From the NCBI GenBank assembly GCA_965232515.1, contig CBDDPY010000002.1, forward strand, positions 4,960,001-5,024,000: a DNA stretch of 64,000 nucleotides. The letters are read 5' to 3'. Below the pieces are notes generated by a model. That model was not told the DNA's origin and made no database searches. It saw only the letters and a program-made list of their open reading frames with translations. Each line of letters begins with the position of its first letter. Position 1 is the first letter of the stretch. Origin of the DNA: Alphaproteobacteria bacterium. GTDB lineage: Bacteria; Pseudomonadota; Alphaproteobacteria; GCA-2731375. Positions 41,898-56,593 of this stretch are shown here, piece after piece. Made by a program: the position numbers and the translations under genes.

Positions 41898-43223
41898 TCA
41901 CCCCCTCAGACGATAGAGCTCCGGCAGCCACAGCGCGATCTGCGGGAACGCCATCACAATGGCGAGTCCGAAGATCATCACCGCGACGAACGGCACGATC
42001 GAGCGGTAGATATCCATCAGCGACACCTCCGGCGGCGCCATGGCGCGCATCAGGAACAGGTTGTAGCCGAACGGCGGTGTCATATAGGCGATCTGGCAGG
42101 TGATGGTGTAGAGCACGCCGTACCAGATCAGGTCGAAGCCGAGCGCGCCGACCAATGGCACGTAAAGCGGCGCCACGATCACCAGCATCGCCGTGTCGTC
42201 CAGGAACGTGCCCATGATCAGGTACGAGAGCTGCATCATGATCAGGATCTGCCAGGGGCTCAGGCCCATGCGGTCCACGAAGAAGCCCTCGATGGCCTTC
42301 ACCGCGCCCAGCCCGTCGAACACCGCGCCGAAGCAGAGCGCCGCCAGGATGATCCACATGAACATGCAGGAGATGCCGAGCGTCTTGCGCAGCGTCTCCT
42401 CCATCACCTTGCGCGTCAGCCGCCCCTTGGCGATCGCCGCCAGCGTCGCGGCCAGCGCGCCCACGGCCGAGCTCTCGGTCAGGTTGGTGACGCCCATCAG
42501 GAACAGGCCGGTCATCGAGAAGAAGATGAAGAGCGGCAGCAGGCCGGCGCGCAGCAACGAGAGCTTCTCGCGCATCGGCATGTCGCGTTCGTCGGCCGGC
42601 AGAGGCGGCCCCAGATGCGGCTGCAGCCGGCAGCGCACGACGATATAGACGATGAACAGCCCCGCCATCATCAGGCCGGGAAACACGCCGGCCAGCCAGA
42701 GCTGTCCCACCGGCTGCCGCGCGATCATGCCGTAGAGCACCAGCACCACGCTCGGCGGCACCAGAATGCCCAGCGACGAGCCGGCCTGGATCACGCCCGT
42801 CACCATGATCTTGTCGTAGCCGCGCCGCAGCAGCTCGGGCAGCGCGATGCTGGCGCCGATCGCCATGCCGGCGACGCTGAGCCCGTTCATGGCCGAGATC
42901 GCCACCATCAACCCGATCGTGCCGACCGCCAGCCCGCCCTTCAGCGGCCCGAACCAGACATGGAACATCTTGTAGAGGTCGTTAGCGATGCCCGACTCGG
43001 ACAGCATGTAGCCCATATAGATGAACAGCGGCAGCGTCAGCAGCGGATACCATTTCATCAGCTTCATGGCGGCGCTGAACGACAGCTCCGAGCCGCCTTC
43101 GCCCCACAGCAAGAGCGCCGCCACGACGGCGACGAAGCCGATGGCGCCGAACACCCGCTGCCCCGTCAGCAGCATCAGCATCATCGATGCGAACATCAGG
43201 ACGGCGATGAGCTCGTAGCTCAT
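41898..43223 (-). CDS. dctM: TRAP transporter large permease
   Basis: LPLFIYMG, LGILVPPS, YMTPPFGYNLF, FPQIALWLP. Confidence 0.9.
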   Translation of the reverse strand: MSYELIAVLMFASMMLMLLTGQRVFGAIGFVAVVAALLLWGEGGSELSFSAAMKLMKWYPLLTLPLFIYMGYMLSESGIANDLYKMFHVWFGPLKGGLAVGTIGLMVAISAMNGLSVAGMAIGASIALPELLRRGYDKIMVTGVIQAGSSLGILVPPSVVLVLYGMIARQPVGQLWLAGVFPGLMMAGLFIVYIVVRCRLQPHLGPPLPADERDMPMREKLSLLRAGLLPLFIFFSMTGLFLMGVTNLTESSAVGALAATLAAIAKGRLTRKVMEETLRKTLGISCMFMWIILAALCFGAVFDGLGAVKAIEGFFVDRMGLSPWQILIMMQLSYLIMGTFLDDTAMLVIVAPLYVPLVGALGFDLIWYGVLYTITCQIAYMTPPFGYNLFLMRAMAPPEVSLMDIYRSIVPFVAVMIFGLAIVMAFPQIALWLPELYRLRG

Positions 43224-43759
43224 GCCAGGTCATCCCCGGCCGGCAGGTCGGCGCCCAGATCCAAACCGCGCAGCTTGGCTATGTCCTTGATCAGACTGGA
43301 AATCGCCTGCAGCAGCATCATGAAGATGCCGACGCACATGACGATCTTGATCGGCGCCATATAGGGCCGCCAGGCGGAATAGCTGCGCTCGCCGTACTCG
43401 ACCGCATAGACCGTGCTCGACAGCCCGCCGTAGAACAGCAGCGCCAGATAGAAGATCAGGAACAGCACGGTAAACGCGTCCACCCAGGTGCGCGTACGGT
43501 CCGACCAGGCGCCGTACAACAGGTCCATGCGCACATGGTCGCCCAGCTGCAGCGAATAGGCGCCGCCCAGCAGGAAATAGGCGACCATCAGGAACTGCGC
43601 CATTTCCAGCGTCCACAGGGGCGGGATGAAGAAGGTCTTCGTGAAGGACGAGTACAGCAGCACGCCCATCATGGCGAAAACCAGCAGCATGATCGCGCGG
43701 CCGATGACGCGGTTCACCGCGTCGACCGCGCGCACGTAGGCCGTCAGCGCCTTCGGCAT
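43220..43759 (-). CDS. dctQ: TRAP transporter small permease
   Basis: 4 TM; WTLEMAQ..GDHVRMDLLY; start MPKAL. Confidence 0.88.
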   Translation of the reverse strand: MPKALTAYVRAVDAVNRVIGRAIMLLVFAMMGVLLYSSFTKTFFIPPLWTLEMAQFLMVAYFLLGGAYSLQLGDHVRMDLLYGAWSDRTRTWVDAFTVLFLIFYLALLFYGGLSSTVYAVEYGERSYSAWRPYMAPIKIVMCVGIFMMLLQAISSLIKDIAKLRGLDLGADLPAGDDLA

Positions 43760-43960
43760 GCGCCGCGTCCGCCGGCGCCACGAACGACGATGTCCGCGGG
43801 GCGTTGCTGACACATAGGACAAGCCCTCCCTGTCCGGCATGGCGTCTCCGCGCCAATACCGCCCGGACGGTAGCAAAGTTTATTGCAGGACGAAACGCTG
43901 GCTTGTCGGCGCGCGCGGTCCAACGGCCGCAAGGAAATCGTCGGCCATCCGCCACCAACC

Positions 43961-44046
43961 GTCATGCTGGCGCAGGCCAGCATCCAGCGGCTTTGCAGCA
44001 AGCTGAAGAATCAATAAACCTGGATCCTGGCCTGCGCCAGGATGAC
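43961..44046. repeat. REP/REPIN-like palindromic element, copy 2
   Basis: GTCATGCTGGCGCAGGCCAGCATCCA..different spacer..TGGATCCTGGCCTGCGCCAGGATGAC. Confidence 0.8.
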
Positions 44047-44082
44047 CCGGATTCGCCGGGCGCGATACCGGTTCTCAGGCGG

Positions 44083-44217
44083 TCAGGACGACCCGATGCC
44101 GCCCGTCGGCGGTGGCAGGTTGCCCCGGCGTCCCTTGCGCAGGGAATCGGGCGAGACGCCGAAGATCCGGCAGATCCAGGCGACGAAACCGGACCACCAT
44201 TGCAAAACTGTACGCAT
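44083..44217 (-). CDS. Candidate 44-aa small protein
   Basis: GGGAGG RBS upstream of ATG; MRTVLQWWSGFVAWICRIFGVSPDSLRKGRRGNLPPPTGGIGSS. Confidence 0.4.
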   Translation of the reverse strand: MRTVLQWWSGFVAWICRIFGVSPDSLRKGRRGNLPPPTGGIGSS

Positions 44218-44396
44218 ATCTCGACCTCCCCAAGCTGTTTCGCCCGCGCTGAAACGACGCGGACCCTCGATCGAGGTGCAACGCACATCCGCCTGGATAG
44301 TAGCACAAGATGCGATTGACCGCCGACGTTGTGCCGCGACGATGGTTTCGATAGAACCTGCTTCCCCCACGCGCATGCGGCAATGGAGACGACGAG

Positions 44397-44930
44397 ATGG
44401 TGCCGACGTTGGAAACGGACCGGCTGCGGCTGATGCCGCGCACGGCGGCCGATATCGACGCCTGCGTCGCCATGGACAGCGACCTCGAGGTTCGGCGCTA
44501 CATCACCCCCGACTTCCGCGACAACTTCGACGCCGCCGCCTATCGCGCAAGTCTTGGAGAACGCTTGGCGATCGATGCCGGGCCGGGCTTCGGCTGGTGG
44601 ATCATCCGCGATCGCGACACGCCCGGGCGCTTCCATGGTCTGGCCATGCTGATCCCGGTCGGTCTCGAGGGTCCGGAGATCGAGATCGGCTGGCGCCTGC
44701 CGCGCGCCTCTTGGGGGAATGGCTACGCGACCGAGGCCGCAATACGCATCCTCGCCCACGCCTTCGACGACGTCGGTCTGTCCGAGGTCATCGCCTGCAT
44801 CGATCCCGAGAACAGCCGCTCGATCGCCGTCGCCGCCCGCCTCGGCTTCGTCCGTGACGGCCGCAAGGCTGCCTACGGCACCGAGTTCGACCTCTATCGC
44901 CTGCGCCGCGACGCTACCGGTGCGGGCTGA
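44397..44930 (+). CDS. GNAT N-acetyltransferase, RimJ/RimL family
   Basis: LETDRLRL, EIGWRL..WGNGYATEA, ENSRSIAVAARLGF. Confidence 0.88.
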   Translation: MVPTLETDRLRLMPRTAADIDACVAMDSDLEVRRYITPDFRDNFDAAAYRASLGERLAIDAGPGFGWWIIRDRDTPGRFHGLAMLIPVGLEGPEIEIGWRLPRASWGNGYATEAAIRILAHAFDDVGLSEVIACIDPENSRSIAVAARLGFVRDGRKAAYGTEFDLYRLRRDATGAG

Positions 44931-44942
44931 CCGCCGGCTGCG

Positions 44943-46256
44943 TCAGAAGCCGATCTCCAGTTCGATGCCGACGAAGAAGGCCGGGTCCGCGTCGTCCGCG
45001 AAGGCGTCGCCCGGCAGGAACGCGCCGGCGATCGCTTCGAGCTCGACCGTCTCGCTCACCTGATAGCCGATGATCAGGTCCACGCCGTTGCCGATTGTGC
45101 GGTCGTGGCCGTCGGGATCGGCGTCGATGGCGGCGTTGCGAAGTTCGTCCGACGCCTCGTGTTGCCGGTAATGGTGGTAGACGAGATCGATCGAGCTGTC
45201 GTCGGTCGGGCGCAGGCCGAGGCCGGCGGTCAGGATGATCAGGTTGCTGAGCTCCGGGTCCAGCACCTCGCCGTAATACTTGAAGCTGGTGATGCCGTTG
45301 AAGTCGTCGTTGTTGTCCTGCAGGCCAGTCTGCCGGAAAGCCCGGTTGGTGCCGTCGTCGGGATCGTCGTCGCCGCTGCCGAAGGCAAGGCCCAGCGTCA
45401 ATGACGGCTCCCATGGCGCGTCGGCCACGTAGCTCGCGCCGACATCGAAACCGTAGCCGCGGATGTCGTCGTCGCCGGCCGCGCCGCGCACATGCATGAG
45501 CTCGACCCAGTAATCGATATTGCCGGTCAGCGCGCCGATCGACTGCAGGCCGATAAAGACCGCGTCCTCGTCGCGGCGGTCGCGGCCGTCGCGATAAAAC
45601 AGATACGGGCTGATCTCACTGTCCTCGCCCACCGCGTAGCGCCCGAGCAGGAAATAGTTGTTGGGTTCGTCTTCCGAGCGGTCGCCCAACAGGTCTTTTT
45701 TGACCAGATCCTCGCGGCTGACCGATGCTTCCAGGCCGAAGGCCGCGCGGCGCAGATAGAGCCGGACGCCGTCCAGATCCTCGTCATAGAGCCATTCGCG
45801 CTTGTCCTCGAACGGCTGCCGGCCGAGCGTCAGCGACAGGCCGGGGAAGACCTCGCGGAAATTCGCATAGGCCTGCTTGACCACCAGCTCGGCGTCCGGC
45901 GAGCCCCGGCCGTCCGGCGCGTCGATGTTGATCTCCTTGTTTATCTCGACATTCAGGAACGCGCGGAACCACGGCGTCGGATCGTAGGAGAAGGCGAGCT
46001 CCAGTTCCGGCTTGACCGCCGTGACGTCGTCGCTCAGGCCGCGCTCCAGGTCGAGGTCGCGTTCATGGGTGAGTTCGAGCTTCAACTCGGCGCCGAAGGA
46101 CAGATTGGGCGTCAGCTGCAGCCGGGTGTCGGGCGGATCGTCGAAATCGAACTCGACGCCCGAATCGTTGATTTGCGCCGCCGCGATTGGCACCGTCGCC
46201 AACAGCACGCCGGCACACGCCAGGCAGACCTCAAGCCGACGGCGCCAGCCGGCCAT
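44943..46256 (-). CDS. AlgE-like (alginate export family) outer-membrane beta-barrel
   Basis: Signal peptide; LGRQPFEDKREWLYDEDLDG, AFGSGD..FRQTGLQDN..YGEVLDPELSNL recalled as AlgE motifs; C-terminal Phe. Confidence 0.8.
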   Translation of the reverse strand: MAGWRRRLEVCLACAGVLLATVPIAAAQINDSGVEFDFDDPPDTRLQLTPNLSFGAELKLELTHERDLDLERGLSDDVTAVKPELELAFSYDPTPWFRAFLNVEINKEINIDAPDGRGSPDAELVVKQAYANFREVFPGLSLTLGRQPFEDKREWLYDEDLDGVRLYLRRAAFGLEASVSREDLVKKDLLGDRSEDEPNNYFLLGRYAVGEDSEISPYLFYRDGRDRRDEDAVFIGLQSIGALTGNIDYWVELMHVRGAAGDDDIRGYGFDVGASYVADAPWEPSLTLGLAFGSGDDDPDDGTNRAFRQTGLQDNNDDFNGITSFKYYGEVLDPELSNLIILTAGLGLRPTDDSSIDLVYHHYRQHEASDELRNAAIDADPDGHDRTIGNGVDLIIGYQVSETVELEAIAGAFLPGDAFADDADPAFFVGIELEIGF

Positions 46257-47523
46257 CTTCGTCGCGCCTCGGGGTCTGCGGCGCGTCCGATGTGTTCGTG
46301 TCGATGACGGGCATCGTCGTAACCGGGGCCGGTTTCACCGCCAGGAAGGCGTAGATCTCAGCCGCGATGGCGAGCGCGATGCGAACGCCCAGCATCGCCA
46401 TGACGCCCCAGGTGTTCCACAGGAAGCCCGCCAGGACCGGGCCGGCGACGCCGCCCGCCTCCTCGCCCAGGCTGAGCACCGCCATGGTGTGGGCGCGCTT
46501 GCGCCGGTCGAGGTCAGAATGCTGCGCCATCAGCGCGCCCCAGGCCGGCTTGAAGGCGGCCTTGCCGGCCTCGTCGATCAGACGACCGCCCATCATGCCG
46601 GCGAGGTTCGGCGCCACCATGAATACAATCGACGAGACCACGTTGGCGACGCCACGGACCCGCAGCACCAGGTTCCGGCTGACATTGTCGGACAACCAGC
46701 CAAAGCCGGGTCCCGCGACCAGCATGACCATCGCGGCCAGGAAATAGATCATGCCGGTCTCTGCCGCGCTCAGGCCGGCATACTCCACGGCCAGCACGGG
46801 GAACAGGCCGCCGATCATCTTGGCGCTGCTGCTCATCAAGAAGCCCAGCCCCATGATCGACACCAGCCGGCGCCGCAGGTCCGCCGGCCGGGCCTCGACG
46901 TCGGGCGTCTCGGCTGTCGCTTTCGCCGGCGCCGGCGTGCCGGATGCTTTCGCCGGCACGAAACGCCAGACCACGACGACCGGGATCAGCGACAGCAGGG
47001 CCGCGGCCACGAACACCAGTGAAAAATTCTGCGCCGTCGCCGTCAGCAGGATGCCGGCCAGCGCGTGGCCGAGCTTGCCCGAGACGCTCTTCACCGAGGC
47101 GTACCAGGCGAACGACGAGGCCACGGCCCGCTTGGCGCTGCGTTCGGCGATCAGGGCATAGGCCGCCGGGTCGCGCAGCGACCGCGATGCGCCATGCGCC
47201 ATGCGGATGGCGAAGAGATGCCAGGGCAGCCAGGCCAGCGCCAGCAGCAGGGACACCATCGAGCGTAAGGCCAAGGCCGCGACCAAACTGGGTTTCAGCC
47301 CGCAGCGGTCCGCCATCCGTCCCATCGCCGGCTTCAGGATCATGGCGACGGCGAAGTTCAGCGACAGCAGGATGCCGATCTCGGCGACCGACATGCCGAG
47401 ATGATGCGCGTAGAGCGGCAGGGCGAAGGCGATGATGCCGAAGCTGAGCCGGGACGCCAGCCCCTCGGCGACAATGGCCAGCAGAACCGTACGGTCGTGA
47501 CGCGGAGATTGTGCCATCGTCAT
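46231..47523 (-). CDS. MFS transporter
   Basis: About 12 TM; motif A GRMADRCGLK and GWLSDNVSR; ATGA overlap with upstream ATP-grasp gene. Confidence 0.88.
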   Translation of the reverse strand: MTMAQSPRHDRTVLLAIVAEGLASRLSFGIIAFALPLYAHHLGMSVAEIGILLSLNFAVAMILKPAMGRMADRCGLKPSLVAALALRSMVSLLLALAWLPWHLFAIRMAHGASRSLRDPAAYALIAERSAKRAVASSFAWYASVKSVSGKLGHALAGILLTATAQNFSLVFVAAALLSLIPVVVVWRFVPAKASGTPAPAKATAETPDVEARPADLRRRLVSIMGLGFLMSSSAKMIGGLFPVLAVEYAGLSAAETGMIYFLAAMVMLVAGPGFGWLSDNVSRNLVLRVRGVANVVSSIVFMVAPNLAGMMGGRLIDEAGKAAFKPAWGALMAQHSDLDRRKRAHTMAVLSLGEEAGGVAGPVLAGFLWNTWGVMAMLGVRIALAIAAEIYAFLAVKPAPVTTMPVIDTNTSDAPQTPRRDEDGRLAPSA

Positions 47524-48515
47524 CCGGCCGCCGTCGCCGGGCTTGCCGGCAACGCCGGCCGATCGCCGGGCAGCGTGCACCGCCCGTCGGCATAGTCGGC
47601 GATATAGTCGGCGATCAGCGGCGCCGCACCCGGCACGCCCTTGTAGCCGGGGAAGTAGTTCACATCCACGACCACCGGACCTTCCGGCCCCTCGATAAAA
47701 TCAAGCCCATAGAGTCCGAGGCCGAAGACCTCGCCGCAACTGAGCGCGATCCGCCGCACCTCTTCGCTGATCTCACAGGCTTCGCCGGCCCGCGTGAAGC
47801 TCGTCGGCGAAAACCGCTTTCGCGTCCCGAATACTTCGCTGCCGACGACATAGACCTTCAGGTCTTCGCCCGGGCCGGGGACAAAGTCCTGCACGATGAC
47901 CGGAACCGGCGACGGCGGCACGGCCGCCAGCTCGACCGCGTTGCGCACGACATGGATGTCGGCGCCGCGATGCCCGCGGTGCGGCTTGATGATCAACGGG
48001 CCGTCCGCCAGTTGCGGCGCCAGCAGCGTCAGGTCGCCGGTCACCCACGAGCGTGGCGCCGGCAGGTCCGCGGCGCGCAGCCGTCGGCAGGCGGTGATCT
48101 TGTCCTGCGCCGCGAGGCACGCGGCATAGGGATTGAGCATGCGGGCGCCCTGGCCATGCAACGTCCCCGCGAGACTGAGCGTCAGCTCGGTATGCGACTT
48201 GATGACGTAAAGATCGTGTTCGACGTCCAGCAGGTCTGCCCGCACGACCATCTCTTCGGCGATGCCGGTTTCGACTCTGAAGCCCCGTCCGCGCAGGATG
48301 TCGAAGACCTCGCGCAGTACCGGGCTGTCCACCGGTGGGACGCGCCGGACCAGCAGGAAATACAAGCTTCCGTTGGCGACCCTTGAGGGTTTGGCAAAGC
48401 CTTTTCGCGCTGTCTTTCGCGCTTTTCCGGTGGCCTTCATCCCGCTGGCGGCTCGTCCGAGGTTGCCTTCATGGGTACCAAGACGAGGCTGGGGGCGCGT
48501 TGCGACGACCTTCAT
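47520..48515 (-). CDS. ATP-grasp protein 4 (ITPK1/RimK-like)
   Basis: QDK, PLIIKPHRGHRG, IVQDFV..DLKVYVVG, GLYGLDFI..VVDVNYFPGYKGVP. Confidence 0.85.
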   Translation of the reverse strand: MKVVATRPQPRLGTHEGNLGRAASGMKATGKARKTARKGFAKPSRVANGSLYFLLVRRVPPVDSPVLREVFDILRGRGFRVETGIAEEMVVRADLLDVEHDLYVIKSHTELTLSLAGTLHGQGARMLNPYAACLAAQDKITACRRLRAADLPAPRSWVTGDLTLLAPQLADGPLIIKPHRGHRGADIHVVRNAVELAAVPPSPVPVIVQDFVPGPGEDLKVYVVGSEVFGTRKRFSPTSFTRAGEACEISEEVRRIALSCGEVFGLGLYGLDFIEGPEGPVVVDVNYFPGYKGVPGAAPLIADYIADYADGRCTLPGDRPALPASPATAAG

Positions 48516-49360
48516 GCTCGCTCCCCCCGGTCACGAGCGGCGTGCCCGTAGCCCTGGCCGGACTTGGCCTCCGCGCAGGCATCGTAAATATAGTCGGCCA
48601 GGTGCCGGCCGGCCTCCGGCACGCCTTTGAAGCCGGGAAAGGCGCTCGTGTCCACGACGTAGGGTCGGCCGTGGCTGATAACGACGTCGATTCCGAAGAC
48701 ATCGATACCGAAGGTTCGCCTGCAACGCATAACGATGTCGAGCAGGTCGTCGACGACTTCGAAAGGTTCACCCAGCTTTTGTTCATAGGTCTGCGCCGGC
48801 CACACGCGTTTGACGCCGAACACGCGTTCGCCGATGCAGTAGATCTTTCGATCCCGTCCTTCCGGCTCCTTGTAGCGTTGAGCTAAAACCGGCGACCTGT
48901 CGAGCGGGATCGTGCTCAGTTGATCTTGCATCCGAATGACATGTACGCCGCGCCCCCGTGAGCCCCGACAGGGCTTCACGATCAACGGCCCCTCATCCAG
49001 CAGGTCCACCAGTTGCTCCGGACGACTGGCGACATAGCTCTCCGGGGCCGGGATGTTGGCCGCCTCGAGCATCTGCGCGGCCACGATTTTGTCGCGCAGC
49101 ATCTCAGAGACCGGATAGGGATTGACGATCCGCGCGCCCAGAGCATGCAGCGCTCCGGCCAGGCTCAACGTCAAGTCGCTGCGATACTTCAAGATGTAGA
49201 GGTCATGTTCGACCCGTAATCGCGTCAGATCGGTCCGCCGTTCCTCCGGGGCGATGACCTCCACGGCAACGCCACGATCGGAAAGGCGCCGAATTATTTC
49301 GGCTGCGATGGAAACGCTATGTGTTTGACGCCCTGCGCGGAGGAACATGGCGATCCTCAT
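48512..49360 (-). CDS. ATP-grasp protein 3 (ITPK1/RimK-like)
   Basis: Start MRIAMF after GGAG; RDK, PLIVKPCRGSRG, LAQRY..DRKIYCIG, FGIDVV..VVDTSAFPGFKGVP. Confidence 0.85.
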   Translation of the reverse strand: MRIAMFLRAGRQTHSVSIAAEIIRRLSDRGVAVEVIAPEERRTDLTRLRVEHDLYILKYRSDLTLSLAGALHALGARIVNPYPVSEMLRDKIVAAQMLEAANIPAPESYVASRPEQLVDLLDEGPLIVKPCRGSRGRGVHVIRMQDQLSTIPLDRSPVLAQRYKEPEGRDRKIYCIGERVFGVKRVWPAQTYEQKLGEPFEVVDDLLDIVMRCRRTFGIDVFGIDVVISHGRPYVVDTSAFPGFKGVPEAGRHLADYIYDACAEAKSGQGYGHAARDRGERA

Positions 49361-49520
49361 GTCGAACTCCTCCGGCTGGCTTTCCGCCCGCATGCTTCTC
49401 TTGTCGTCTGGTGAATGAAGGCAACATCGTCGGTCGCCGCCTGGTTCGAGCCCGGCCCCCGCAAATCGGGCCTTTCTTTGAGCAAGACGCTGCGTTGCAT
49501 TGCCATCGCCATCACCCATT

Positions 49521-50804
49521 TCATTCAGGTCGGGGTGCACGGGTAATCAGGCTGTATAGCGCTCGCCCGGTTAAGCGACCGCATTCGGACATCTCGTTAT
49601 GACGCGAGGGCCGCTGCCAGGCCCAGGTCATGGTCTTCAGGTCGATCAGCAGGTTCTCTCGTTGCCAGCCGCGGGCGAAACGGTCGTATCGGCTCATGAC
49701 CAGGTGGCCCAGGCGGCTGGCGCTGTCGATCGCGCAGATGCGTTCCATGGCGGCGCGGACGCCCTGGCTGCCCATGTCGCGGTCGAGCAGCACCGCCGCC
49801 GGATCGTCCGGGTTGCGGTAGTGCAGGGCCGCCGCGATACCGACCGCCAGGTTGGTCGGCCGCCGGCCGGCCTTCGCCGCCAGCCGGAGAGCGCCAACCA
49901 GCCGGTCGGCGGGCGCCAGCTTGCGAAAGGGATCGCGGGCAACGCGGGTCACGGGATCGTTCAGCACGGCATTGTCGAAGCGCCGGAGAACAGCCGTCAG
50001 GGTATCGCGGCCGCCGGCGATGGCGGCGCCGTAGCGGGCGGCGAGCCCGGCCTGTCCCTCGGCCATCGCCTTCCGGACGACGGCGCGAATCTCCGGATCG
50101 CGGACCGCCGCGTGAATGTAGCGATAGCCCTTCAGATAGCCGATATAGGCGCAGGTCGCGTGCCCGGCGCTGAACATGTAGAGCTTGCGGTGCACATGAG
50201 CGCCGTAATCGGCGGCGACTTTCATGCCGGCGATCACCGGTTTCGGATCGCGCAGCGCCCGGCCGTCGACGACGAACGTCTCGGCTTGGTCGCCGATCAG
50301 GGTCACCGGCTCGGCACAATCGCGCGCCATCTCGAGGTGCGATACCGCGCGCGAGACGAGGGCGCTGACGAAACCGTGCGCGCCGGCGCGGCGCGCGCCC
50401 AGTTCCCGCGCCACCAGTTGGCGTAGTCGGCGGCCCGGGTCTTCCAGGTTCTCGAAGGCGAGCACGTTGACCGGCGACTGTCGCCGCGCCAGTCCCGCCG
50501 AGATCAGCGGCGCCACGTCGGCCAGGTTGTCGGGCCCCACCGCGGTCGCCACCACATTGGCGTTGGCGATCTCGTCGACGGCGCGGGCCTGGTCGTGGAT
50601 CGACACCGCGTCGACTCCACCGACCTCGGTTTCCACACTGTCGGCGCCGTTCGACAACCGCACCCGATAACGCCCGGCCGTGTTCAGGTGCGACAGCAGA
50701 CGCTGGTTGCGCCCGATGAAGGTCAGGTCATAGCCGGACGCCCGCAGCAGATGGCCGGCGAAGCCGCAGCCGACCCGGCCGGGGCCGATGATGACGGCTT
50801 TCAT
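49521..50804 (-). CDS. mtlD: Mannitol-1-phosphate 5-dehydrogenase-like polyol-phosphate dehydrogenase (divergent)
   Basis: MKAVIIGPGRVGCGF, TAVG, FENL, RKLYMFSAGHATCAYIG, RFDN..D..RVARDP.RKL..DRL match the MtlD pattern. Confidence 0.78.
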   Translation of the reverse strand: MKAVIIGPGRVGCGFAGHLLRASGYDLTFIGRNQRLLSHLNTAGRYRVRLSNGADSVETEVGGVDAVSIHDQARAVDEIANANVVATAVGPDNLADVAPLISAGLARRQSPVNVLAFENLEDPGRRLRQLVARELGARRAGAHGFVSALVSRAVSHLEMARDCAEPVTLIGDQAETFVVDGRALRDPKPVIAGMKVAADYGAHVHRKLYMFSAGHATCAYIGYLKGYRYIHAAVRDPEIRAVVRKAMAEGQAGLAARYGAAIAGGRDTLTAVLRRFDNAVLNDPVTRVARDPFRKLAPADRLVGALRLAAKAGRRPTNLAVGIAAALHYRNPDDPAAVLLDRDMGSQGVRAAMERICAIDSASRLGHLVMSRYDRFARGWQRENLLIDLKTMTWAWQRPSRHNEMSECGRLTGRALYSLITRAPRPE

Positions 50805-51640
50805 TGCAGCACCCTCCGTGGGGCGGCGGGCGTCGAGGCCCAGTCGGCATCCTGGGCGCAGGTGTAGACATAGTCGGCCAGACGTAGCGCCGCGTCCGGC
50901 ACGCCCTTGAACCCGGGAAAGCTGTTAACATCGACGACATAGGCCTGACCGTTGCTGAAGATCACGTCGATCCCGAATACGTCGATGCCGAAGGCGCGGC
51001 CGCTCATCAAGGCGATATCCCGCAATTCCGCCGAGATCGTCAGCGGGCGGCCCAGCTTCTGCCGGTAGGTCCGGGCCGGCCATTCGCGCTCGACGCCGAA
51101 CACCTGTCCGTTGATGCAATAGATCTTGTGGTCGAAGCGGTCCGGCGCCTTGTAGCGCTGGGCGATGACGGGTCCGGTGCTGGCCGGCAGTTGTTCCAGC
51201 TCCGCGCGGTCGCGCACCACGCGGATACCCCGGCCCTTCGAACCGCGGGCCGGTTTGATGACCAGCGCGCCTTCTTCCAGGATCGACGCCAGATCGCTCG
51301 GCCTTTCGGCGGCATAGGCCGGCGGCGTCGGGATCCGCGCCCGCTGCAGAATGCGGTAGACGATCGCCTTGTCCCTCAGCATCGCGGCCACGGGAAAGGG
51401 ATTGATGATCCGCGCGCCGGTCGCGTGCAGCGCGCCGGCGAAGCTCAGCGCGCCTTCGCTGCTCGATTTCAGGACATAGAGGTCGTGATGGGGCCAGCGC
51501 TGGGTCAGACAGATCGGGCTTTCGTCCGGACAGATCAGGTCGATCTCCGCGCCCCACTCCGACAGCAGGTGGACCATCTCCCGCATGATCGGGCTGCTTT
51601 GTCCGTCCGGATGGGCGCGAACCAGAAAACCGATTTTCAC
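50801..51640 (-). CDS. ATP-grasp protein 2 (ITPK1/RimK-like)
   Basis: RDK, LVIKPARGSKG, IAQRY..DHKIYCING, FGIDVI..YVVDVNSFPGFKGVP. Confidence 0.85.
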   Translation of the reverse strand: MKIGFLVRAHPDGQSSPIMREMVHLLSEWGAEIDLICPDESPICLTQRWPHHDLYVLKSSSEGALSFAGALHATGARIINPFPVAAMLRDKAIVYRILQRARIPTPPAYAAERPSDLASILEEGALVIKPARGSKGRGIRVVRDRAELEQLPASTGPVIAQRYKAPDRFDHKIYCINGQVFGVEREWPARTYRQKLGRPLTISAELRDIALMSGRAFGIDVFGIDVIFSNGQAYVVDVNSFPGFKGVPDAALRLADYVYTCAQDADWASTPAAPRRVLQ

Positions 51641-52527
51641 GACACCCTCCCCTTATCCGATGCCGGCGCACCGTCCGCGCTCAGGCAATGGGCGGCGATG
51701 TAATCGGCCAAACGGTGATCGGCGTCCGGCACGGCGGAATAGTTCGGGAAGTCGTTCACCTCGATGACCACCAGGCCTCTCGAGCTTTCCAGGCAATCGA
51801 CGCCATAGAGATCGAGTTCGAAGGCCGCGCGGCAGGTCTGCGCCAGGCGCCGCATGGCTGGCGTCACCGTTACCAGCTCGGCATCGTCGTCCATGGCCGC
51901 GTGCGGCAGCGGCGACGGCTTGCGTACCGCCCAGAGGTCGGCGCCGATGCCGTAGAGTTTCAGGTCATAGCTGTCGCTCGGCAGGAAGTGCTGGGCCAGG
52001 ACCGTCGGATCCGGCCACGCGAGGTCCACCAGCTCGCGCGCGCTGTCGACGAGACGTATGCCGCGGGCATTGTCGCCGAAGACGGGCTTCAGGATCAGCG
52101 GGTAGTCCACGCCGGGGTTCAGTTTGCGCGGAAGCAGGGCGATCGGGCCGACGAACGTCCGCGGGATCGGCAACCCCTCCGCCGCCAGCACCATGGACAT
52201 GTGCGCCTTGTTCAGCACCGCTCTGATGCTGGCGCTGCGGTTGATGGTGGGCGTGCCCTGCCGTTCCGCATGGCTCAGCAGCAACAGAAGCATCAGGCTC
52301 CGGCCGCGGGCCACCACGGCGTCGAACGTGATGGTCGGTGAACGATTGTCGAAACGGCAAACGGCGGCGTCCGGGTCGACCAGCTCGACGTCATAGCCGC
52401 GCTCGGCGAGCGCCGTCATCACGCCGGCGGGCTGCGGCTGCGACATGTAGCGCCGCTCGGCCAGAATGCCGATCTTCGGTGCCGTCGACGACCGACGGCA
52501 CCCCTGTGGGGATAGTCCCATCGTCAT
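51637..52527 (-). CDS. ATP-grasp protein 1 (ITPK1/RimK-like)
   Basis: LNK, PLILKPVFGDNARG, LAQHF..DLKLYGIG..AVRKPSP, YGVDCL..VIEVNDFPNY. Confidence 0.85.
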   Translation of the reverse strand: MTMGLSPQGCRRSSTAPKIGILAERRYMSQPQPAGVMTALAERGYDVELVDPDAAVCRFDNRSPTITFDAVVARGRSLMLLLLLSHAERQGTPTINRSASIRAVLNKAHMSMVLAAEGLPIPRTFVGPIALLPRKLNPGVDYPLILKPVFGDNARGIRLVDSARELVDLAWPDPTVLAQHFLPSDSYDLKLYGIGADLWAVRKPSPLPHAAMDDDAELVTVTPAMRRLAQTCRAAFELDLYGVDCLESSRGLVVIEVNDFPNYSAVPDADHRLADYIAAHCLSADGAPASDKGRVS

Positions 52528-52610
52528 GCCCTCTTTATTTCTGCGTCGCGGATTTCGTTTTGCCGCCGCCCGACTGCGGCATCCGCTGTCAATTCGTGTT
52601 TAGTTTGTTC

Positions 52611-52650
52611 GTTTCAGTTTTATGACAAATTTACACGGCGCAGATGACAA
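52611..52650 (-). promoter_or_regulatory. Pho-box-like direct repeats upstream of the ATP-grasp operon
   Basis: Minus strand reads TTGTCAT (52650-52644) and, 22 bp later, TTGTCAT-AAAA-CTGAAAC (52628-52611); PhoB consensus is CTGTCAT-A/T4-CTGTCAC. Confidence 0.65.
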
Positions 52651-52810: not shown

Positions 52811-53605
52811 TCACTCAGGCATGCTGCGCCAGGTCTCCGCGCATTCGGTGCAGGACGACCGGCGCGGATGCAGAAACGCGAACGGGTTTGCCGTCAACGT
52901 CGGCACGACGGTGTCGACCACATCGCGGGCGCGCATCAGCTTCGCTGGTGCGTATCCGACCGGGCCTTCGGCTTGCAGGCCGCGTTCCGTCAGCCAGGCG
53001 TTCGCCAGGCGGAACAGCGCGCAGCAATGATCGTTCTCCAGATAGTCGATCCGCGTCGGCCGGCCGTCCCGCGACACGGTGATGTGCTTCGGGCGCCGGT
53101 AGGGCACGTCCGCCAGCAATTCGGCCAGATGCAGCATGGTGCTGGCGTCGTGGTCGACGCCCAGCAGCAGCACCTTGCCGTCGGCCTCCAGCACGCGCCC
53201 GACCGGGCTCTCGTGCTGATGCGGTGGCAGCACCAGATCGTCGGCCAGGATCTCGGTGGCCTTCGGCCCGCGCGCCGAGAACGCGAAGGCATGCCGGCCG
53301 CGCTTGACGCCCGGCAGCAGCCGGAATGTTTCGGCGACGACACCCAGATCCTCCGCCACCGGCGTCGATACGGGATCGAACACGGCGTCGTCGTCGCCAG
53401 TCCACGACGGCATCGCGATCGTGCCCTCGGGCCCGACGGCTGCGCCCAGCGCCGCAATCAACCCGGCCGGCCCGCCCGCCACCGGCCGCACCGCGCGAAA
53501 CGACGTATGCACCAGCACGACATCGCCACGCGCGACGCCGAGCGCCTGGAGCTGGGCGACGAGCTCCGGCACAGAAATCTCGCAACGGGCATGCCATGCG
53601 GTCAT
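52811..53605 (-). CDS. aac(3)-IV: Aminoglycoside 3-N-acetyltransferase, AAC(3)-IV-like
   Basis: LVHTSFRAVRP, MPSWTG.DD..FDP, DLGVV.ETF, LPPH..SPV.RV, LHLAEL, DYLENDHCC, EGPVG, FLHP..CTEC, collinear with AAC(3)-IVa as recalled. Confidence 0.85.
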   Translation of the reverse strand: MTAWHARCEISVPELVAQLQALGVARGDVVLVHTSFRAVRPVAGGPAGLIAALGAAVGPEGTIAMPSWTGDDDAVFDPVSTPVAEDLGVVAETFRLLPGVKRGRHAFAFSARGPKATEILADDLVLPPHQHESPVGRVLEADGKVLLLGVDHDASTMLHLAELLADVPYRRPKHITVSRDGRPTRIDYLENDHCCALFRLANAWLTERGLQAEGPVGYAPAKLMRARDVVDTVVPTLTANPFAFLHPRRSSCTECAETWRSMPE

Positions 53606-54250: not shown

Positions 54251-56593
54251 ATGATGCAGCCACGGACCGAGCCATCGGCGCTGAAGTCCGTCGTCTGTAC
54301 CAGTTGCGACGGCTTTTGCCCCGTCGCGGCGAAGGTCGAGGACGGCCGCGTCGTCAAGGTCACCACCCGCGAGCACCCGTTCTTCAAGGACGTGATCTGC
54401 ATGAAGGGCGCCTATGCGCCGAAGTCCTTCGCGCATCCCGACCGCCTTCTGCATCCGCTGAAGCGCACCGGCGCGCGGGGCGAGGGCGGCTGGCAGCAGG
54501 TCACCTGGGACGACGCGCTCGACGACATCGCCGAGCGCCTGCGAACGGTCGTCGCCCGGTACGGGCCCGAAGCTTTCGCCGTCGCCGCCAGCAACGCCAA
54601 TTTCGGCCTCGACAACGGCCTGACGCGGCGGTTCATGAACCTCATCGGCTCGCCCAACTTCATCAGCGGCGTGGCCTACTGCATGGGCAACACGGCCGCC
54701 GTCAACCGCATGGTCTACGGCTGGTACCCGCGCGGCGACATCCTCAATTCGAAATGCATCGTGCTGTTCGGCCACGATCCCCGCCGGCATAGCTGGACGC
54801 TGGAATACAAATCCATCCGCGTCGCCCAGGCCGGCGGCGCCAAGCTGATCGTGCTCGACCCTCGCAAAAGCGAGAACGCCGAGGCCGCCGATATCTGGCT
54901 GCCGCTGCGCGCCGGCACCGACGCCGCCATGACCCTGGGCTGGCTGAACGTGATCCTGGAAGAGAGCCTCTACGACAAGGATTTCGTGCGCGACTGGACC
55001 GTCGGCTTCGACGCCTTTGCCGAGCGCGTGCGCGAGTATCCGCTGGACCGGGTCGCCGAGATCACCGGCGTCGACGCCGAACTGATCGCCGGGGCGGCGC
55101 GCATGTACGCCATGTCGTCGCCTGCCGTGATCCCCTGGTCCCCGATCACCGACCAGCAGGCCTCCTCGACCTCGGCGATCCGGCTGCAATGCGCCCTGCG
55201 GGCGCTCACCGGCAATCTCGACGTCAAGGGCGGCGAGATGTTCGCCGGCTTTCATCCCGGCATCCGCTCGGACACCGAGATCGAGCTGCATGACGAACTG
55301 TCCGACGCGCAGAAGGCGAAGCAGCTCGGGGCCGAAGAATTCCCGGTCTTCACCTATCGCGGCATGCGGGCGCTGGGCGATGCGACCGAACGCGTCTGGG
55401 GCGCGCGCTGGGCCAACCTGATTTCGGGCTGCTACATGGCGAACCCCATGGCCGTGTTCAAGGCCATGGCCGACGGCGATCCTTATCCCGTGCGGGCGTT
55501 CTTCGCGCTCGCCAACAACACGCTGATGTCGTTCGCCAACACCCGGCGGATCTACGACGCGCTGATGCGGCAGGACCTGATCGTCGCCTACGAGCATATG
55601 CTGACGCCGACGGCCCAGCTCGCCGACTACGTGCTGCCGGGCGACGCCTGGCTCGAGCGGCCGAGCATGATGGCGGGGCTCAGCGAGCAGGCCATGGCGC
55701 CGCCCGGCGACTGCAAGTCGATCGTGTATTTCTGGTGCGAGTTGGCAAACCGGATGGGAATGGAAGCGTATTTCCCGTGGGCATCGGTGGAAGCGCTGCT
55801 GGATTTCCGTCTGGAGCCGGCGGAGACGACCTGGGAGGGAGTCGTCGCCGCCGGCCGCCTGCCGAAGGCCGGCTACGAGGAGAAGAAGTATCTCAAGACC
55901 GGTTTCGCCACGCCGTCGGGCAAGGTCGAGCTCGCGTCCTCGGTGCTGGGCGATCTCGGCTTCGACCCACTGCCCTACTACCGCGAGGCCGCGGCGCCGG
56001 ACACCGACTTTCCGATGACCATGTTCATCGGCCTGCCCGACGACGAGTATTACCGCACCGGCCACCGGCATATCCCGGAATTGCGTCAGCGGGCGCAGGA
56101 CCCGACGCTCTTCGTCAACCCGGACGACGCCGACCGGCTCTGTCTGGACGAAGGCGGCTGGGCCCGGGTCGAAACCGCGGCCGGCGCCATGGCCGGCCGC
56201 GTCTTCGTGCGCTCGGCCATGCCGGCCGGGCTCATCCGCGTGCCGCACGGCTGGTGGAAACCGGAATCGCGGCCCGGTCTCGAGAACATGTCCGGCATGT
56301 GGTCGTTCGCCGACGCGCAGCTCACGTCGGACGACGATCCCGACCTGATCGACCGCGAGCAGGGCGTGCCGCACCTGAAGGGCGTGCCCTGTCGCATTTC
56401 CGCGCTCGACCCGGCCGAGGTCGCCCGGCTCGAAGCCGAGTTCGGCCCCACCGACCGGCTGCCGCGCGGCCCCGAGGGAAAGGTGCTGCGCGCGAAAAGC
56501 CGGCCCGGCGACCTCACGTTTGACGACGAATTCGGCGACGGCGTCGAATTCGAAGCGGTTCAGCTTTCCCTTTACGGCCGCGGCTCTGTATAG
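54251..56593 (+). CDS. Bis-PGD Mo/W enzyme of the acetylene hydratase clade
   Basis: CTSCDGFC..ICMK [4Fe-4S] motif with Asp after the second Cys; RRFMNLIGSPN..YCMGNTA; IPW..TD; MANP; PGDAWLERP; IRVPHG.W.PE; no Tat signal. Confidence 0.85.
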   Translation: MMQPRTEPSALKSVVCTSCDGFCPVAAKVEDGRVVKVTTREHPFFKDVICMKGAYAPKSFAHPDRLLHPLKRTGARGEGGWQQVTWDDALDDIAERLRTVVARYGPEAFAVAASNANFGLDNGLTRRFMNLIGSPNFISGVAYCMGNTAAVNRMVYGWYPRGDILNSKCIVLFGHDPRRHSWTLEYKSIRVAQAGGAKLIVLDPRKSENAEAADIWLPLRAGTDAAMTLGWLNVILEESLYDKDFVRDWTVGFDAFAERVREYPLDRVAEITGVDAELIAGAARMYAMSSPAVIPWSPITDQQASSTSAIRLQCALRALTGNLDVKGGEMFAGFHPGIRSDTEIELHDELSDAQKAKQLGAEEFPVFTYRGMRALGDATERVWGARWANLISGCYMANPMAVFKAMADGDPYPVRAFFALANNTLMSFANTRRIYDALMRQDLIVAYEHMLTPTAQLADYVLPGDAWLERPSMMAGLSEQAMAPPGDCKSIVYFWCELANRMGMEAYFPWASVEALLDFRLEPAETTWEGVVAAGRLPKAGYEEKKYLKTGFATPSGKVELASSVLGDLGFDPLPYYREAAAPDTDFPMTMFIGLPDDEYYRTGHRHIPELRQRAQDPTLFVNPDDADRLCLDEGGWARVETAAGAMAGRVFVRSAMPAGLIRVPHGWWKPESRPGLENMSGMWSFADAQLTSDDDPDLIDREQGVPHLKGVPCRISALDPAEVARLEAEFGPTDRLPRGPEGKVLRAKSRPGDLTFDDEFGDGVEFEAVQLSLYGRGSV

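Follow-up and report, generated by a model that had tools for sequence, protein, structure and literature searches.

A Pho-box-fronted operon of an alphaproteobacterium and its conserved core of ATP-grasp, dehydrogenase and transporter genes

Here we describe an operon of seven genes within a stretch of 64,000 nucleotides from contig CBDDPY010000002.1 of an alphaproteobacterial genome (this whole stretch is hereafter called the window). That the operon is fronted by a Pho box, and that its core joins a predicted hexitol-phosphate dehydrogenase, two intact and one degenerate kinds of ATP-grasp protein and a transporter, we regard as solid in terms of sequence comparison. As for the function of these genes, we tentatively favour a reading that may well prove wrong, namely that PhoB controls the operon, that its five-gene core handles a small molecule based on a hexitol phosphate and moves the product across the membrane, and that a phosphorus-free hexitol derivative would thus be made and exported, aiding phosphorus acquisition. 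The operon is of a known kind, being an ATP-grasp-based small-molecule operon with a transporter under Pho control, yet we know of no described pathway with this combination of genes. The proteins of the module score below the thresholds of all named RimK-type families and of MtlD, and agree with ITPK1 only in its C-terminal part. An earlier note on this DNA had proposed a pathway for a polyphosphorylated polyol, a proposal that our sequence comparisons support in part. The host is a bacterium with a complete genome and a clear Pho box, so that the question is directly testable.

The operon, its conserved core and its Pho box

Coordinates below are positions in the window, and both the open reading frame (ORF) calls and the sequence were read directly. 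Seven head-to-tail ORFs of the minus strand occupy 44943-52527 in the order G1-G2-dehydrogenase-G3-G4-MFS-porin (MFS, major facilitator superfamily), behind a Pho-box-like array:

52611-52650, minus strand: Pho-box-like array of four 11-bp units
51637-52527, minus strand: G1, ATP-grasp protein of orthogroup A, 296 aa, catalytic residues intact
50801-51640, minus strand: G2, ATP-grasp protein assigned by the tree to orthogroup B, 279 aa (RimK 58 bits, Ins134_P3_kin 30 bits)
49521-50804, minus strand: MtlD-like NAD-dependent dehydrogenase, 427 aa, with Pfam Mannitol_dh N and C domains
48512-49540, minus strand: G3, second copy of orthogroup B, longest ORF 342 aa (RimK 49 bits, Ins134_P3_kin 33 bits)
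47520-48515, minus strand: G4, ATP-grasp protein of orthogroup C, 331 aa when started at the ATGA-coupled ATG, conserved core from about residue 26
46231-47523 (longest ORF 46231-47580), minus strand: MFS transporter, ATG at 47523 (MFS_1 148 bits)
44943-46256, minus strand: Alginate_exp (AlgE-like) outer-membrane beta-barrel with signal peptide (149 bits, 1.6e-43)

The gene order, the common orientation and the predominance of 4-bp overlaps, all of them claimed in the earlier note, were confirmed: every ORF is present with the expected Pfam families, and stop/start overlaps of four bases (ATGA or GTGA type) join G1 to G2, G2 to the dehydrogenase, G3 to G4 and G4 to the MFS gene, the ATG at 47523 giving the ATGA overlap with the G4 stop. 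Ortholog lengths of about 265-300 aa suggest that the true start of G3 lies later than in the longest ORF, near 49360, and by the same comparison the true start of G4 is perhaps also later. As had been noted before, no gene for a non-ribosomal peptide synthetase (NRPS), a glycosyltransferase, a phosphotransferase system (PTS) or a precursor peptide was seen in 44943-52527. A simple promoter scan of the region gave 0 sigma-70-like promoters, and a simple terminator scan gave 6 terminator-like sites against 5.3 expected.

For the analysis of conservation we used a set of 68 loci taken from a scan of one genome per species, the content of each neighbourhood being determined by tblastn with the proteins of the window. 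At least three ATP-grasp genes together with the dehydrogenase and the MFS gene were found in 51 of the 68 loci, and 12 of the 17 remaining loci are truncated by the end of a contig. The commonest order, grasp-grasp-dehydrogenase-grasp-MFS, occurs in 26 loci, and 11 further loci have an additional ATP-grasp gene 3' of the MFS gene. The conserved core is ATP-grasp A, ATP-grasp B, the dehydrogenase, ATP-grasp C and the MFS transporter. The porin is accessory and stands outside this core, with a homolog (45% identity) downstream of the module only in locus L005, one of the 68. The expectation that the gene set is conserved as a unit therefore holds for the ATP-grasp, dehydrogenase and MFS genes and fails for the porin. 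The loci derive from Chloroflexota, Acidobacteriota, Actinomycetota, Myxococcota, Elusimicrobiota, Eisenbacteria, Rokubacteria and Betaproteobacteria (about eight phyla, with names taken from record titles); they are mostly soil or groundwater metagenome-assembled genomes (MAGs) and include three cultured actinobacteria. Cultured carriers include strains of Ornithinimicrobium (L053), Pseudonocardia (L058) and Pseudopropionibacterium (L054). The loci are for the most part MAG contigs, and where the G+C content is high the start codons are uncertain; the genome of L003 is flagged as unpublished, and no main claim rests on L003 alone. Relatives of the dehydrogenase number in the hundreds at about 50% identity and are mainly metagenomic. 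The dehydrogenase query had no match in 24 genomes of the same family nor in 15 of 16 genomes of the same class, the sole match in that class having 32% identity (3e-12); because the 24 genomes of the same family gave no match, the cluster appears to be sporadic in the lineage of the host.

Examination of the surroundings of the module by a Pfam census, covering 140 of the 146 ORFs within 1.3 kb (six ORFs of at least 820 aa were omitted), revealed no common family, the most frequent being Trans_reg_C with 5 of 140. The module consequently looks self-contained and fed from central metabolites. Neither a LysW-like carrier nor a peptide precursor was found among the module loci, where just one small ORF recurs. 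It encodes a DUF3562-like helical protein of about 80 aa and occurs in 6 loci: it lies between the dehydrogenase and C in L005, L008, L009, L010 and L055 (Chloroflexota and betaproteobacterial), in L051 (10610-10786) its domain forms the C-terminal end of the dehydrogenase as a fusion, and it is absent from the window genome. We found no published description of the gene set in a search that left subscription journals and supplements, with their possible regulon tables, outside its reach; this agrees with the earlier note, which knew of no characterised operon of such layout. A literature search on bacterial inositol phosphate kinases, ATP-grasp and ITPK1 yielded only eukaryotic work among its matches.

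The spacer before G1 measures 283 bp and contains the array TTGTCAT ctgc / GCCGTGT aaat / TTGTCAT aaaa / CTGAAAC, which ends 84 nt 5' of the G1 ATG. The core site of the operon, TGTCATAAAACTGAAAC, is identical in 15 of 17 bases to the site in the pstS promoter of the same genome, TGTCATTAAACTGCAAC. When both strands of the whole 7.39-Mb genome were scanned for sites with at most two mismatches from the pstS site, only three sites other than that of pstS were obtained, one being that of the window operon, another lying 65 nt before a CYTH-CHAD gene and the third elsewhere. This mismatch scan, with the pstS site as its sole input, is the fair test, the looser patterns that were also tried on the genome having been picked post hoc. 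PhoB itself is encoded at 4504163-4504840 of contig C2 (346.5 bits against an equivalog cut-off of 296.2), where it closes a row of ORFs resembling phoR-pstSCAB-phoU-phoB (gene names being assigned from order and size). In other genomes, direct repeats with a period of 11 bp stand directly upstream of gene A in L005 (a betaproteobacterial groundwater MAG, with three units), L019 (a Usitatibacter MAG) and L048 (an Anaeromyxobacter MAG), and these make up four of the seven matches of GTCAY-N6-GTCAY across 80 loci. Likewise, two of three matches of TTCAC-N6-TTCAC are found just upstream of gene A in L034 (an acidobacterial MAG) and L045 (a Thermoleophilaceae MAG). Pho-type boxes hence precede the module in six loci belonging to several phyla. 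Control of the window operon by phosphate starvation, which the earlier note had proposed from the repeats, is credible in the light of the pstS-like site, the presence of PhoB and the similar repeats in other loci, and the distance of 84 nt between the box and the G1 ATG would suit activation. The occurrence of a five-gene module with fixed synteny in about eight phyla, several with phosphate-starvation boxes, points to a likely widespread and hitherto undescribed part of the response to phosphorus scarcity.

Some further upstream elements were observed. The pstS-type Pho box has its second-best copy, TGTCATAAAACTGTAAC, at 4410686, in front of the CYTH-CHAD gene (4410751-4412331 of contig C2, L073); the CYTH-CHAD domain pair is linked with polyphosphate. 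Two Usitatibacter loci, L019 (about 8170-8200) and L020 (about 6780-6810), have in common, upstream of the module, an element resembling a palindrome, TTTGGGAAAA...TCCCAAATTT, which may be a site for another regulator. In the Myxococcota loci L011, L012, L016, L022 and L030, GGAACA...TTTCTGTTCC and GGTGTCGGA...ACAAG are conserved upstream of gene A.

The dehydrogenase and the three ATP-grasp orthogroups

The dehydrogenase of the window matches the N- and C-terminal Mannitol_dh families of Pfam with 67 and 107 bits, and reaches 247.7 bits with the best NCBIfam equivalog for mannitol-1-phosphate 5-dehydrogenase, whose cut-off is 356. A profile built from 17 members of the family matches Shigella MtlD (3H2Z) at 6e-88, and also the bifunctional Acinetobacter MtlD (7OCN) at 1.5e-17. 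The report on the mannitol-1-phosphate dehydrogenase of S. aureus (M1PDH) gives Asn119, Lys200 and Asn205, plus His208, as catalytic residues, Arg280 and Lys288 as substrate-binding, and a phosphate pocket formed by Arg283, Arg287 and Arg294 that is said to be strictly kept among mannitol-1-phosphate dehydrogenases and to be missing from mannitol 2-dehydrogenases (PMC6623548). In the cluster family the catalytic residues N119, K207 and H215 are invariant, and so are R287, R290, R294, K295 and R301, equivalent to R280, R283, R287, K288 and R294 of the S. aureus enzyme in the register of the 3H2Z alignment. The phosphate-pocket residues R290/R294/R301 are invariant in 17 of 17 sequences with a spacing identical to that of 3H2Z (...RVGRQPLRKLSAGDRL...). 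The cluster enzymes consequently resemble MtlD/M1PDH (3H2Z, 5JNM) in their fold, in the catalytic Lys, His and first Asn and in the five basic residues that surround the phosphate of the substrate. They differ from them in falling under the equivalog cut-offs, in having an invariant Ser212 at the position of the second oxyanion Asn (Asn205) and, in the window protein, a Phe for the Val beside it, and in being always flanked by ATP-grasp genes and never beside a PTS. Because the arginine triad has been kept, the substrate is probably a hexitol or ketose phosphate, and the enzyme is probably a hexitol-phosphate or ketose-phosphate oxidoreductase, near MtlD without being an MtlD equivalog. The polyol-phosphate dehydrogenase named in the earlier note is upheld by this pocket.

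The four ATP-grasp proteins score 31-58 bits with Pfam RimK, and G1 has in addition a sub-threshold match of 22 bits to LysX_preATP_grasp. Their nearest NCBIfam families are rimK_fam, LysX, MptN and CofF, and all cut-offs, including that of RimK, are missed (73-89 bits against 143.4 for rimK_fam; 64-74 bits against 275.6 for LysX). In searches with single sequences, E values were 1e-9 to 1e-12 for RimK, LysX and ArgX, with most of the domain covered, and about 1e-6 for ITPK1, with shorter stretches covered, and a profile of 28 C-type sequences matches RimK at 3e-25, LysX at 1e-16, the graspetide ligase PsnB at 1e-14 and ITPK1 at 6.5e-13. For the central segment of G4, LysX/ArgX come first (0.0065) and PPIP5K2 second (0.37). 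AlphaFold2 models were confident, with predicted local distance difference test values of 88.8 and 91.8, and their best fold matches are LysX, ArgX and RimK (the structures compared being PDB 3VPD, 3VPB, 5K2M, 5ZCT and 7QYS), with PPIP5K2 and ITPK1 farther away. The likeness to LysX, ArgX and RimK extends to the three-domain ATP-grasp layout, to the KP...G.xG loop and, in groups A and C, to the GxD and (D/E)xN metal ligands; the differences are the scores below curated cut-offs, a shortened loop discussed below, and the Arg of the D-I-R strand, which is mostly Lys in the module proteins. Overall likeness thus appears to place the ATP-grasp proteins in the RimK/LysX lineage, in a grouping that is not firm. 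A firm grouping of this kind is among the outcomes by which the earlier note would have been refuted. In the ESM Atlas they meet only unnamed ATP-grasp clusters bearing the same RimK and Ins134_P3_kin labels.

That these named families come nearest favours another explanation, in which the proteins are ordinary RimK-type glutamate ligases that either add amino-acid tails to a protein or cofactor or produce a small antibiotic peptide, with the dehydrogenase and the MFS transporter as loose neighbours; the gene just upstream of the operon, which resembles an aminoglycoside 3-N-acetyltransferase (AAC(3)), would agree with it. We think this explanation very improbable, given that all scores lie far under the curated cut-offs, that neither a LysW-like carrier nor a precursor peptide was found (the DUF3562-like ORF of 6 loci being one that the window genome does not have), that the dehydrogenase and MFS genes are syntenic with the ATP-grasp genes in 51 of 68 loci and even fused to C, and that the AAC(3)-like gene was found in 0 of 68 related loci. 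LysX and RimK differ from the module also in their S6 or LysW-type partners, the partners here being a hexitol-phosphate dehydrogenase and an MFS transporter.

A FastTree phylogeny of 119 ATP-grasp proteins, calculated without an outgroup, separated three orthogroups with local support of 97-100: A contains G1, B contains G2, G3 and the extra copies, and C contains G4. G3 clusters with the extra B copies located after the MFS gene in other loci. Detailed examination of the metal site showed that the Mg-ligand Asn of (D/E)xN has been kept in 46 of 46 A proteins and 31 of 32 C proteins, as against 4 of 32 in B and 1 of 7 among the extra B copies; G2 is one of the four B proteins that keep the Asn, and G3 has Ser. 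Orthogroup B is therefore probably not a standard catalyst. The four ATP-grasp genes of the earlier note stand as genes, whereas four distinct enzymes they are not, there being only three orthogroups; its proposal of up to four phosphorylation steps is weakened by this and by the lack of the Mg-ligand Asn in 28 of 32 B proteins. The Lys of D-x-K-x-Y was considered as a marker of kinases and rejected, since 9 of the 32 C proteins and 4 of the 32 B proteins have Arg in its place.

Gene fusions were sought among proteins longer than the query. A C-type domain is fused in front of the MFS transporter in at least 12 clusters (for example in proteins of 763 and 775 aa) and behind the dehydrogenase in at least 10 clusters, one of them with 14 member sequences, and in two cases a protein-kinase-like domain lies between the C-type ATP-grasp and MFS domains. 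No A-type fusion was seen among the longer proteins, a result that counts for little. Both kinds of fusion suggest that C acts beside the dehydrogenase as well as beside the transporter.

Transport, accessory genes and the chemistry of the pathway

The nearest solved sequences to the MFS transporter of the window are the efflux pumps NorA (5e-8) and EfpA, and no organophosphate or sugar-acid importer matched it at E<=0.01 among solved sequences. This does not support the catabolic reading of the earlier note, in which the compound enters through the porin and the MFS transporter. Across the related loci the MFS gene stands beside orthogroup C. The porin of the window matches Alginate_exp over 372 residues and is, like AlgE, an Alginate_exp barrel; unlike AlgE it lies outside any alg operon, its neighbours being the MFS/ATP-grasp operon and a TRAP transporter. 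Genes that adjoin the module elsewhere encode MacAB/HlyD-type efflux systems in 8 loci (7 of Myxococcota type plus L005), CarboxypepD_reg and beta-barrel proteins resembling TonB receptors in 5 loci, and DUF5916/CBM9 proteins in 7 loci. Carboxylate-siderophore clusters, such as vibrioferrin pvsABCDE, combine ATP-grasp or NRPS-independent siderophore (NIS) ligases with an MFS exporter and an outer-membrane receptor. The module recalls them in its small ATP-dependent ligases and efflux-like MFS transporter and, in diderm loci, in the MacAB-like pumps, TonB-like barrels or porin; it differs in its Pho-type box and sugar-phosphate dehydrogenase, and genes for an NIS synthetase, a decarboxylase or an aminotransferase are missing from it.

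A gene of the inositol-monophosphatase family was found in 10 of the 68 loci, from five phyla (Pfam 166-177 bits), with CysQ, HisN and SuhB as its nearest NCBIfam models, all below cut-off. In L040, L041 and L044 it sits between C and the MFS gene. A phosphatase in some module loci recalls the pairing of mannitol-1-phosphate dehydrogenase and mannitol-1-phosphatase in the route from fructose-6-phosphate through mannitol-1-phosphate to mannitol. In L005 the MFS gene is followed, in one direction and behind the triple repeat, by genes for a secreted beta-propeller phytase, a HAD hydrolase, an AlgE-like porin and MacAB. The phytase, HAD hydrolase and porin genes together occupy L005:13768-17918. 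The phytase is of two parts, with 650 aa and a repeated C-terminal region, a signal peptide and a PF02333 match of 3e-70. The L005 genome has another phytase gene, on the same contig. Phytase as a general companion of the module was rejected, PF02333 being present in 4 of 50 module genomes and in 2 of 14 controls; the adjacency in L005 stands. A tblastn search with the L005 phytase gave no match in the window genome. The link to phytate and inositol drawn in the earlier note therefore keeps the monophosphatase-family genes and the phytase of L005 in its favour and has the scarcity of PF02333 against it.

One way to read the fusions is as uptake with trapping, in which the MFS transporter would import a free hexitol such as mannitol or sorbitol, C would phosphorylate it at the membrane and the dehydrogenase would oxidise the resulting hexitol phosphate to fructose-6-phosphate by a non-PTS route, with A and B serving other polyols or regulating. 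The fusions of C to the MFS transporter and to the dehydrogenase, the phosphate pocket of mannitol-1-phosphate dehydrogenases and the self-contained nature of the module all agree with such a route. It leaves unexplained the Pho boxes of six loci in several phyla, the two further conserved ATP-grasp orthogroups, the phosphatase between C and the MFS gene, and the outer-membrane, MacAB and TonB-like neighbours, and we consider it improbable.

Taking together the gene content, its conservation, the similarity of the Pho boxes, the phosphate pocket of the dehydrogenase, the fold relationships and the fusions, we infer for ligation and export a series of chemical steps, a direction of transport and a role of the product that would be as follows. 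Under phosphate starvation, the dehydrogenase would form a hexitol phosphate by reducing fructose-6-phosphate or a closely similar ketose phosphate. A (G1) and C (G4), using one ATP each, would then link a group with a carboxylate (amino acid or organic acid) to it by an ester or amide bond, and the B paralogs G2 and G3, with their degenerate metal site, would serve as partner or specificity subunits. A phosphatase would recover the phosphate; 10 of 68 loci have a gene for it within the cluster, and in the window organism it would presumably be a housekeeping enzyme. The phosphorus-free anionic product would leave by the efflux-like MFS transporter and then, in the window organism, cross the outer membrane by the AlgE-like porin, and outside the cell it could aid phosphorus acquisition, for example by chelating the Fe, Al or Ca that holds phosphate or phytate.

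We favour ligation because the C-type profile matches RimK so much better than ITPK1 and because the folds are those of LysX, ArgX and RimK; the RimK/LysX lineage also includes ester-forming relatives. Export as the direction of transport is favoured because the MFS transporter resembles NorA and EfpA and because MacAB/HlyD and TonB-like neighbours occur. An order leading from the dehydrogenase through C and the phosphatase to export fits the fusions of C to both partners and the phosphatase located between C and the MFS gene, and such colinearity is like that of pathways in which a phosphorylated intermediate is elaborated and its phosphate is taken off at the end. Exporting a phosphorus-free compound would make sense at times of scarce phosphate. 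If this reading is true, the operon would make a new secreted phosphorus-mobilising metabolite by means of RimK-type enzymes forming esters or amides on a sugar-alcohol scaffold.

Several observations weigh against ligation and export. Ins134_P3_kin (PF05770) reaches 29.8, 30.3, 33.2 and 42.5 bits in the four ATP-grasp proteins, above its gathering score of 23, with a match that is limited in all four to profile positions of about 140-200 of 201. At the end of G4, the final 57 residues (...VVVDVNYFPGYKGVPG..., including NYFPGY) match ITPK1 above RimK, their counterparts in ZmITPK1 being ...VIDINYFPGYAKMPG... and ...LVIDINYFPGYAKMPG..., and the central strand of G1 (...DLKLYGIGADLWAVRKPSP...) matched PPIP5K2 only, with an E value of 1.3 that is not significant. 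The loop that follows the D-I-R strand, reading ...EFRSNLHRGG... in RimK and ...ITNTARGG... in LysX, is 4-6 residues shorter in A, B and C according to HMMER, with S-F-x-x-P-G in C, T-Y-x-x-K-x-G in B and an unconserved sequence in A; in RimK and LysX this loop binds the incoming amino acid. The accessory genes are phosphatases and a phytase, with no amino-acid enzymes among them, and the gene content of the module includes no enzyme that makes or supplies the carboxylate or amine partner. Since a hexitol phosphate has hydroxyls only, an ester-forming ATP-grasp reaction must be assumed. As to transport, the likeness of the MFS transporter to efflux pumps is low (35 bits), organophosphate and anion importer families of NCBIfam give comparable partial scores, and the fusion of a transporter to a cytosolic domain that uses ATP is just as typical of systems that trap what they take up. 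The box by itself may fit either sign of control by PhoB.

Many of these observations would be accounted for by the reading of the earlier note, in which the ATP-grasp proteins are ITPK- or PPIP5K-like kinases, or else ADP-phosphotransferases, with a polyol or inositol that bears several phosphates as their substrate, a possibility that we hold to be unlikely but take seriously. In its catabolic form, set in phosphate starvation, an organic polyphosphate, such as a breakdown product of phytate, would enter through an outer-membrane channel and the MFS transporter, its phosphates would be passed to ADP or rearranged, and a phosphatase and the dehydrogenase would deliver a ketose phosphate to glycolysis; in its biosynthetic form a hexitol phosphate would be phosphorylated further. 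Within phosphotransfer we rank the catabolic form as the likelier. Besides the PF05770 matches of G1-G4, that of an extra ATP-grasp copy in L014 (44.8 bits, above the 27.3 bits of RimK) argues for it. So do the precedence of ITPK1 in the C-terminal segment of G4 and the missing RimK/LysX loop motif, together with the phosphate pocket retained by the dehydrogenase, the monophosphatase-family genes of 10 loci, and the phytase, HAD hydrolase and porin of the same type that stand in line with the module behind the triple Pho-type repeat of L005. No amino-acid-related partner gene emerged from the flank census, and the fusions of C would fit a sequence of uptake, modification and oxidation. The non-significant alignment of the G1 segment with PPIP5K2 has been counted on the same side. 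In Asp1, a PPIP5K ortholog, the corresponding Lys260 is described as forming a bridge from the ATP gamma-phosphate to the acceptor phosphate, and Arg274 as contacting a substrate phosphate (PMC9765450).

The likeness to ITPK1 and PPIP5K/Vip1/Asp1 lies in the ATP-grasp fold, the last ~60 positions of PF05770, the ...(D/E)(V/I)N(Y)FPGY... segment and the D-x-K-x-Y ... RK(S/P)P segment. Against phosphotransfer stand the sequence and fold of the whole proteins, which are closer to LysX, ArgX and RimK than to PPIP5K2 or ITPK1, the D-x-K-x-Y Lys, which does not discriminate, and the missing Mg ligand of 28 of 32 B proteins. The ITPK-type N-terminal domain, for which the accession PF17927 has been given (PMC8024741), had no match at E<=0.01 in G1-G4, and no fused phosphatase domain is present. 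Unlike the eukaryotic kinases, moreover, the module proteins are bacterial and are encoded in an operon that includes dehydrogenase and transporter genes, and the accessible parts of two reports describe ITPKs only in eukaryotes and Lokiarchaeota (PMC6900528, PMC8024741). Further arguments on this side are that the MFS transporter is efflux-like, that PF02333 phytases are found in only 4 of 50 module genomes and none by tblastn in that of the window, and that exporting a phosphorus-rich compound during phosphate starvation would make little sense. To our knowledge, moreover, no acyclic polyol polyphosphate exists in nature. The active site of MtlD type would fit acyclic hexitol phosphates and not inositol rings, to judge from the work on the S. 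aureus enzyme (PMC6623548). The likeness to inositol phosphate kinases claimed in the earlier note is accordingly real for PF05770 and for the NYFPGY and D-x-K-x-Y segments, and does not extend to the proteins as a whole.

Placed in its fullest form, the argument for phosphotransfer would make the three orthogroups the first bacterial relatives of ITPK1/PPIP5K acting on phosphorylated polyols or inositols, intermediate between RimK/LysX and the eukaryotic kinases, with a module that either strips phosphate from an imported polyphosphate straight to ADP and sends the last hexitol phosphate to glycolysis through the MtlD-like enzyme, or makes a bacterial polyol polyphosphate; we judge this to be rather doubtful. 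If phosphotransfer were true, these would be the first bacterial kinases of inositol-polyphosphate type, and categorically new. A clade of ATP-grasp proteins that bridges RimK/LysX and PPIP5K/ITPK1 would bear on the origin of the eukaryotic inositol-phosphate kinases.

Surroundings of the operon and related RNA libraries

The following features lie next to the operon:

52811-53605, minus strand: AAC(3)-like gene of the aminoglycoside 3-N-acetyltransferase family (Antibiotic_NAT 1.3e-50), directly upstream of the Pho box
43220-43876, minus strand: dctQ of a TRAP transporter, downstream of the porin
41898-43223, minus strand: dctM of the same transporter
40772-41833, minus strand: dctP of the same transporter

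The TRAP genes are not conserved with the cluster in related loci. Two ORFs, 43962-44759 (plus a second, 44042-44857, on the opposite strand; the first is on the minus strand and the second on the plus strand), were not counted as genes, having no Pfam match and translations like those of a wrong frame. The space of about 1 kb between the porin and dctQ (43960-44940) has only such ORFs, and its depth in the RNA-library contigs from a close relative is as low as that of the genes. Farther out, the region is flanked by an adenylate/guanylate cyclase-TPR protein (38680-40602, minus strand) and a molybdopterin oxidoreductase (54251-56593, plus strand), for which no operon link was seen.

In three RNA-library runs, short contigs that are 95-99% alike cover the operon at a depth of 3-9; the non-coding flank and the AAC(3)-like gene are equally deep, so that carry-over of DNA is possible. 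A poly-A RNA run had 0 reads over the operon. The RNA-seq runs X4, X6 and X13, which yielded contigs 95-99% alike to the operon region, are labelled as two other organisms, and this likeness suggests that a close relative of the window bacterium is present in libraries labelled otherwise. Marine, coral-reef and marine-sediment metagenome runs contain small shares of the region's words. Finally, contigs C3 (5516 bp) and C4 (10862 bp) of the genome have 46% and 42% G+C, against 65.5% in the chromosome, and may be foreign or contaminant DNA.

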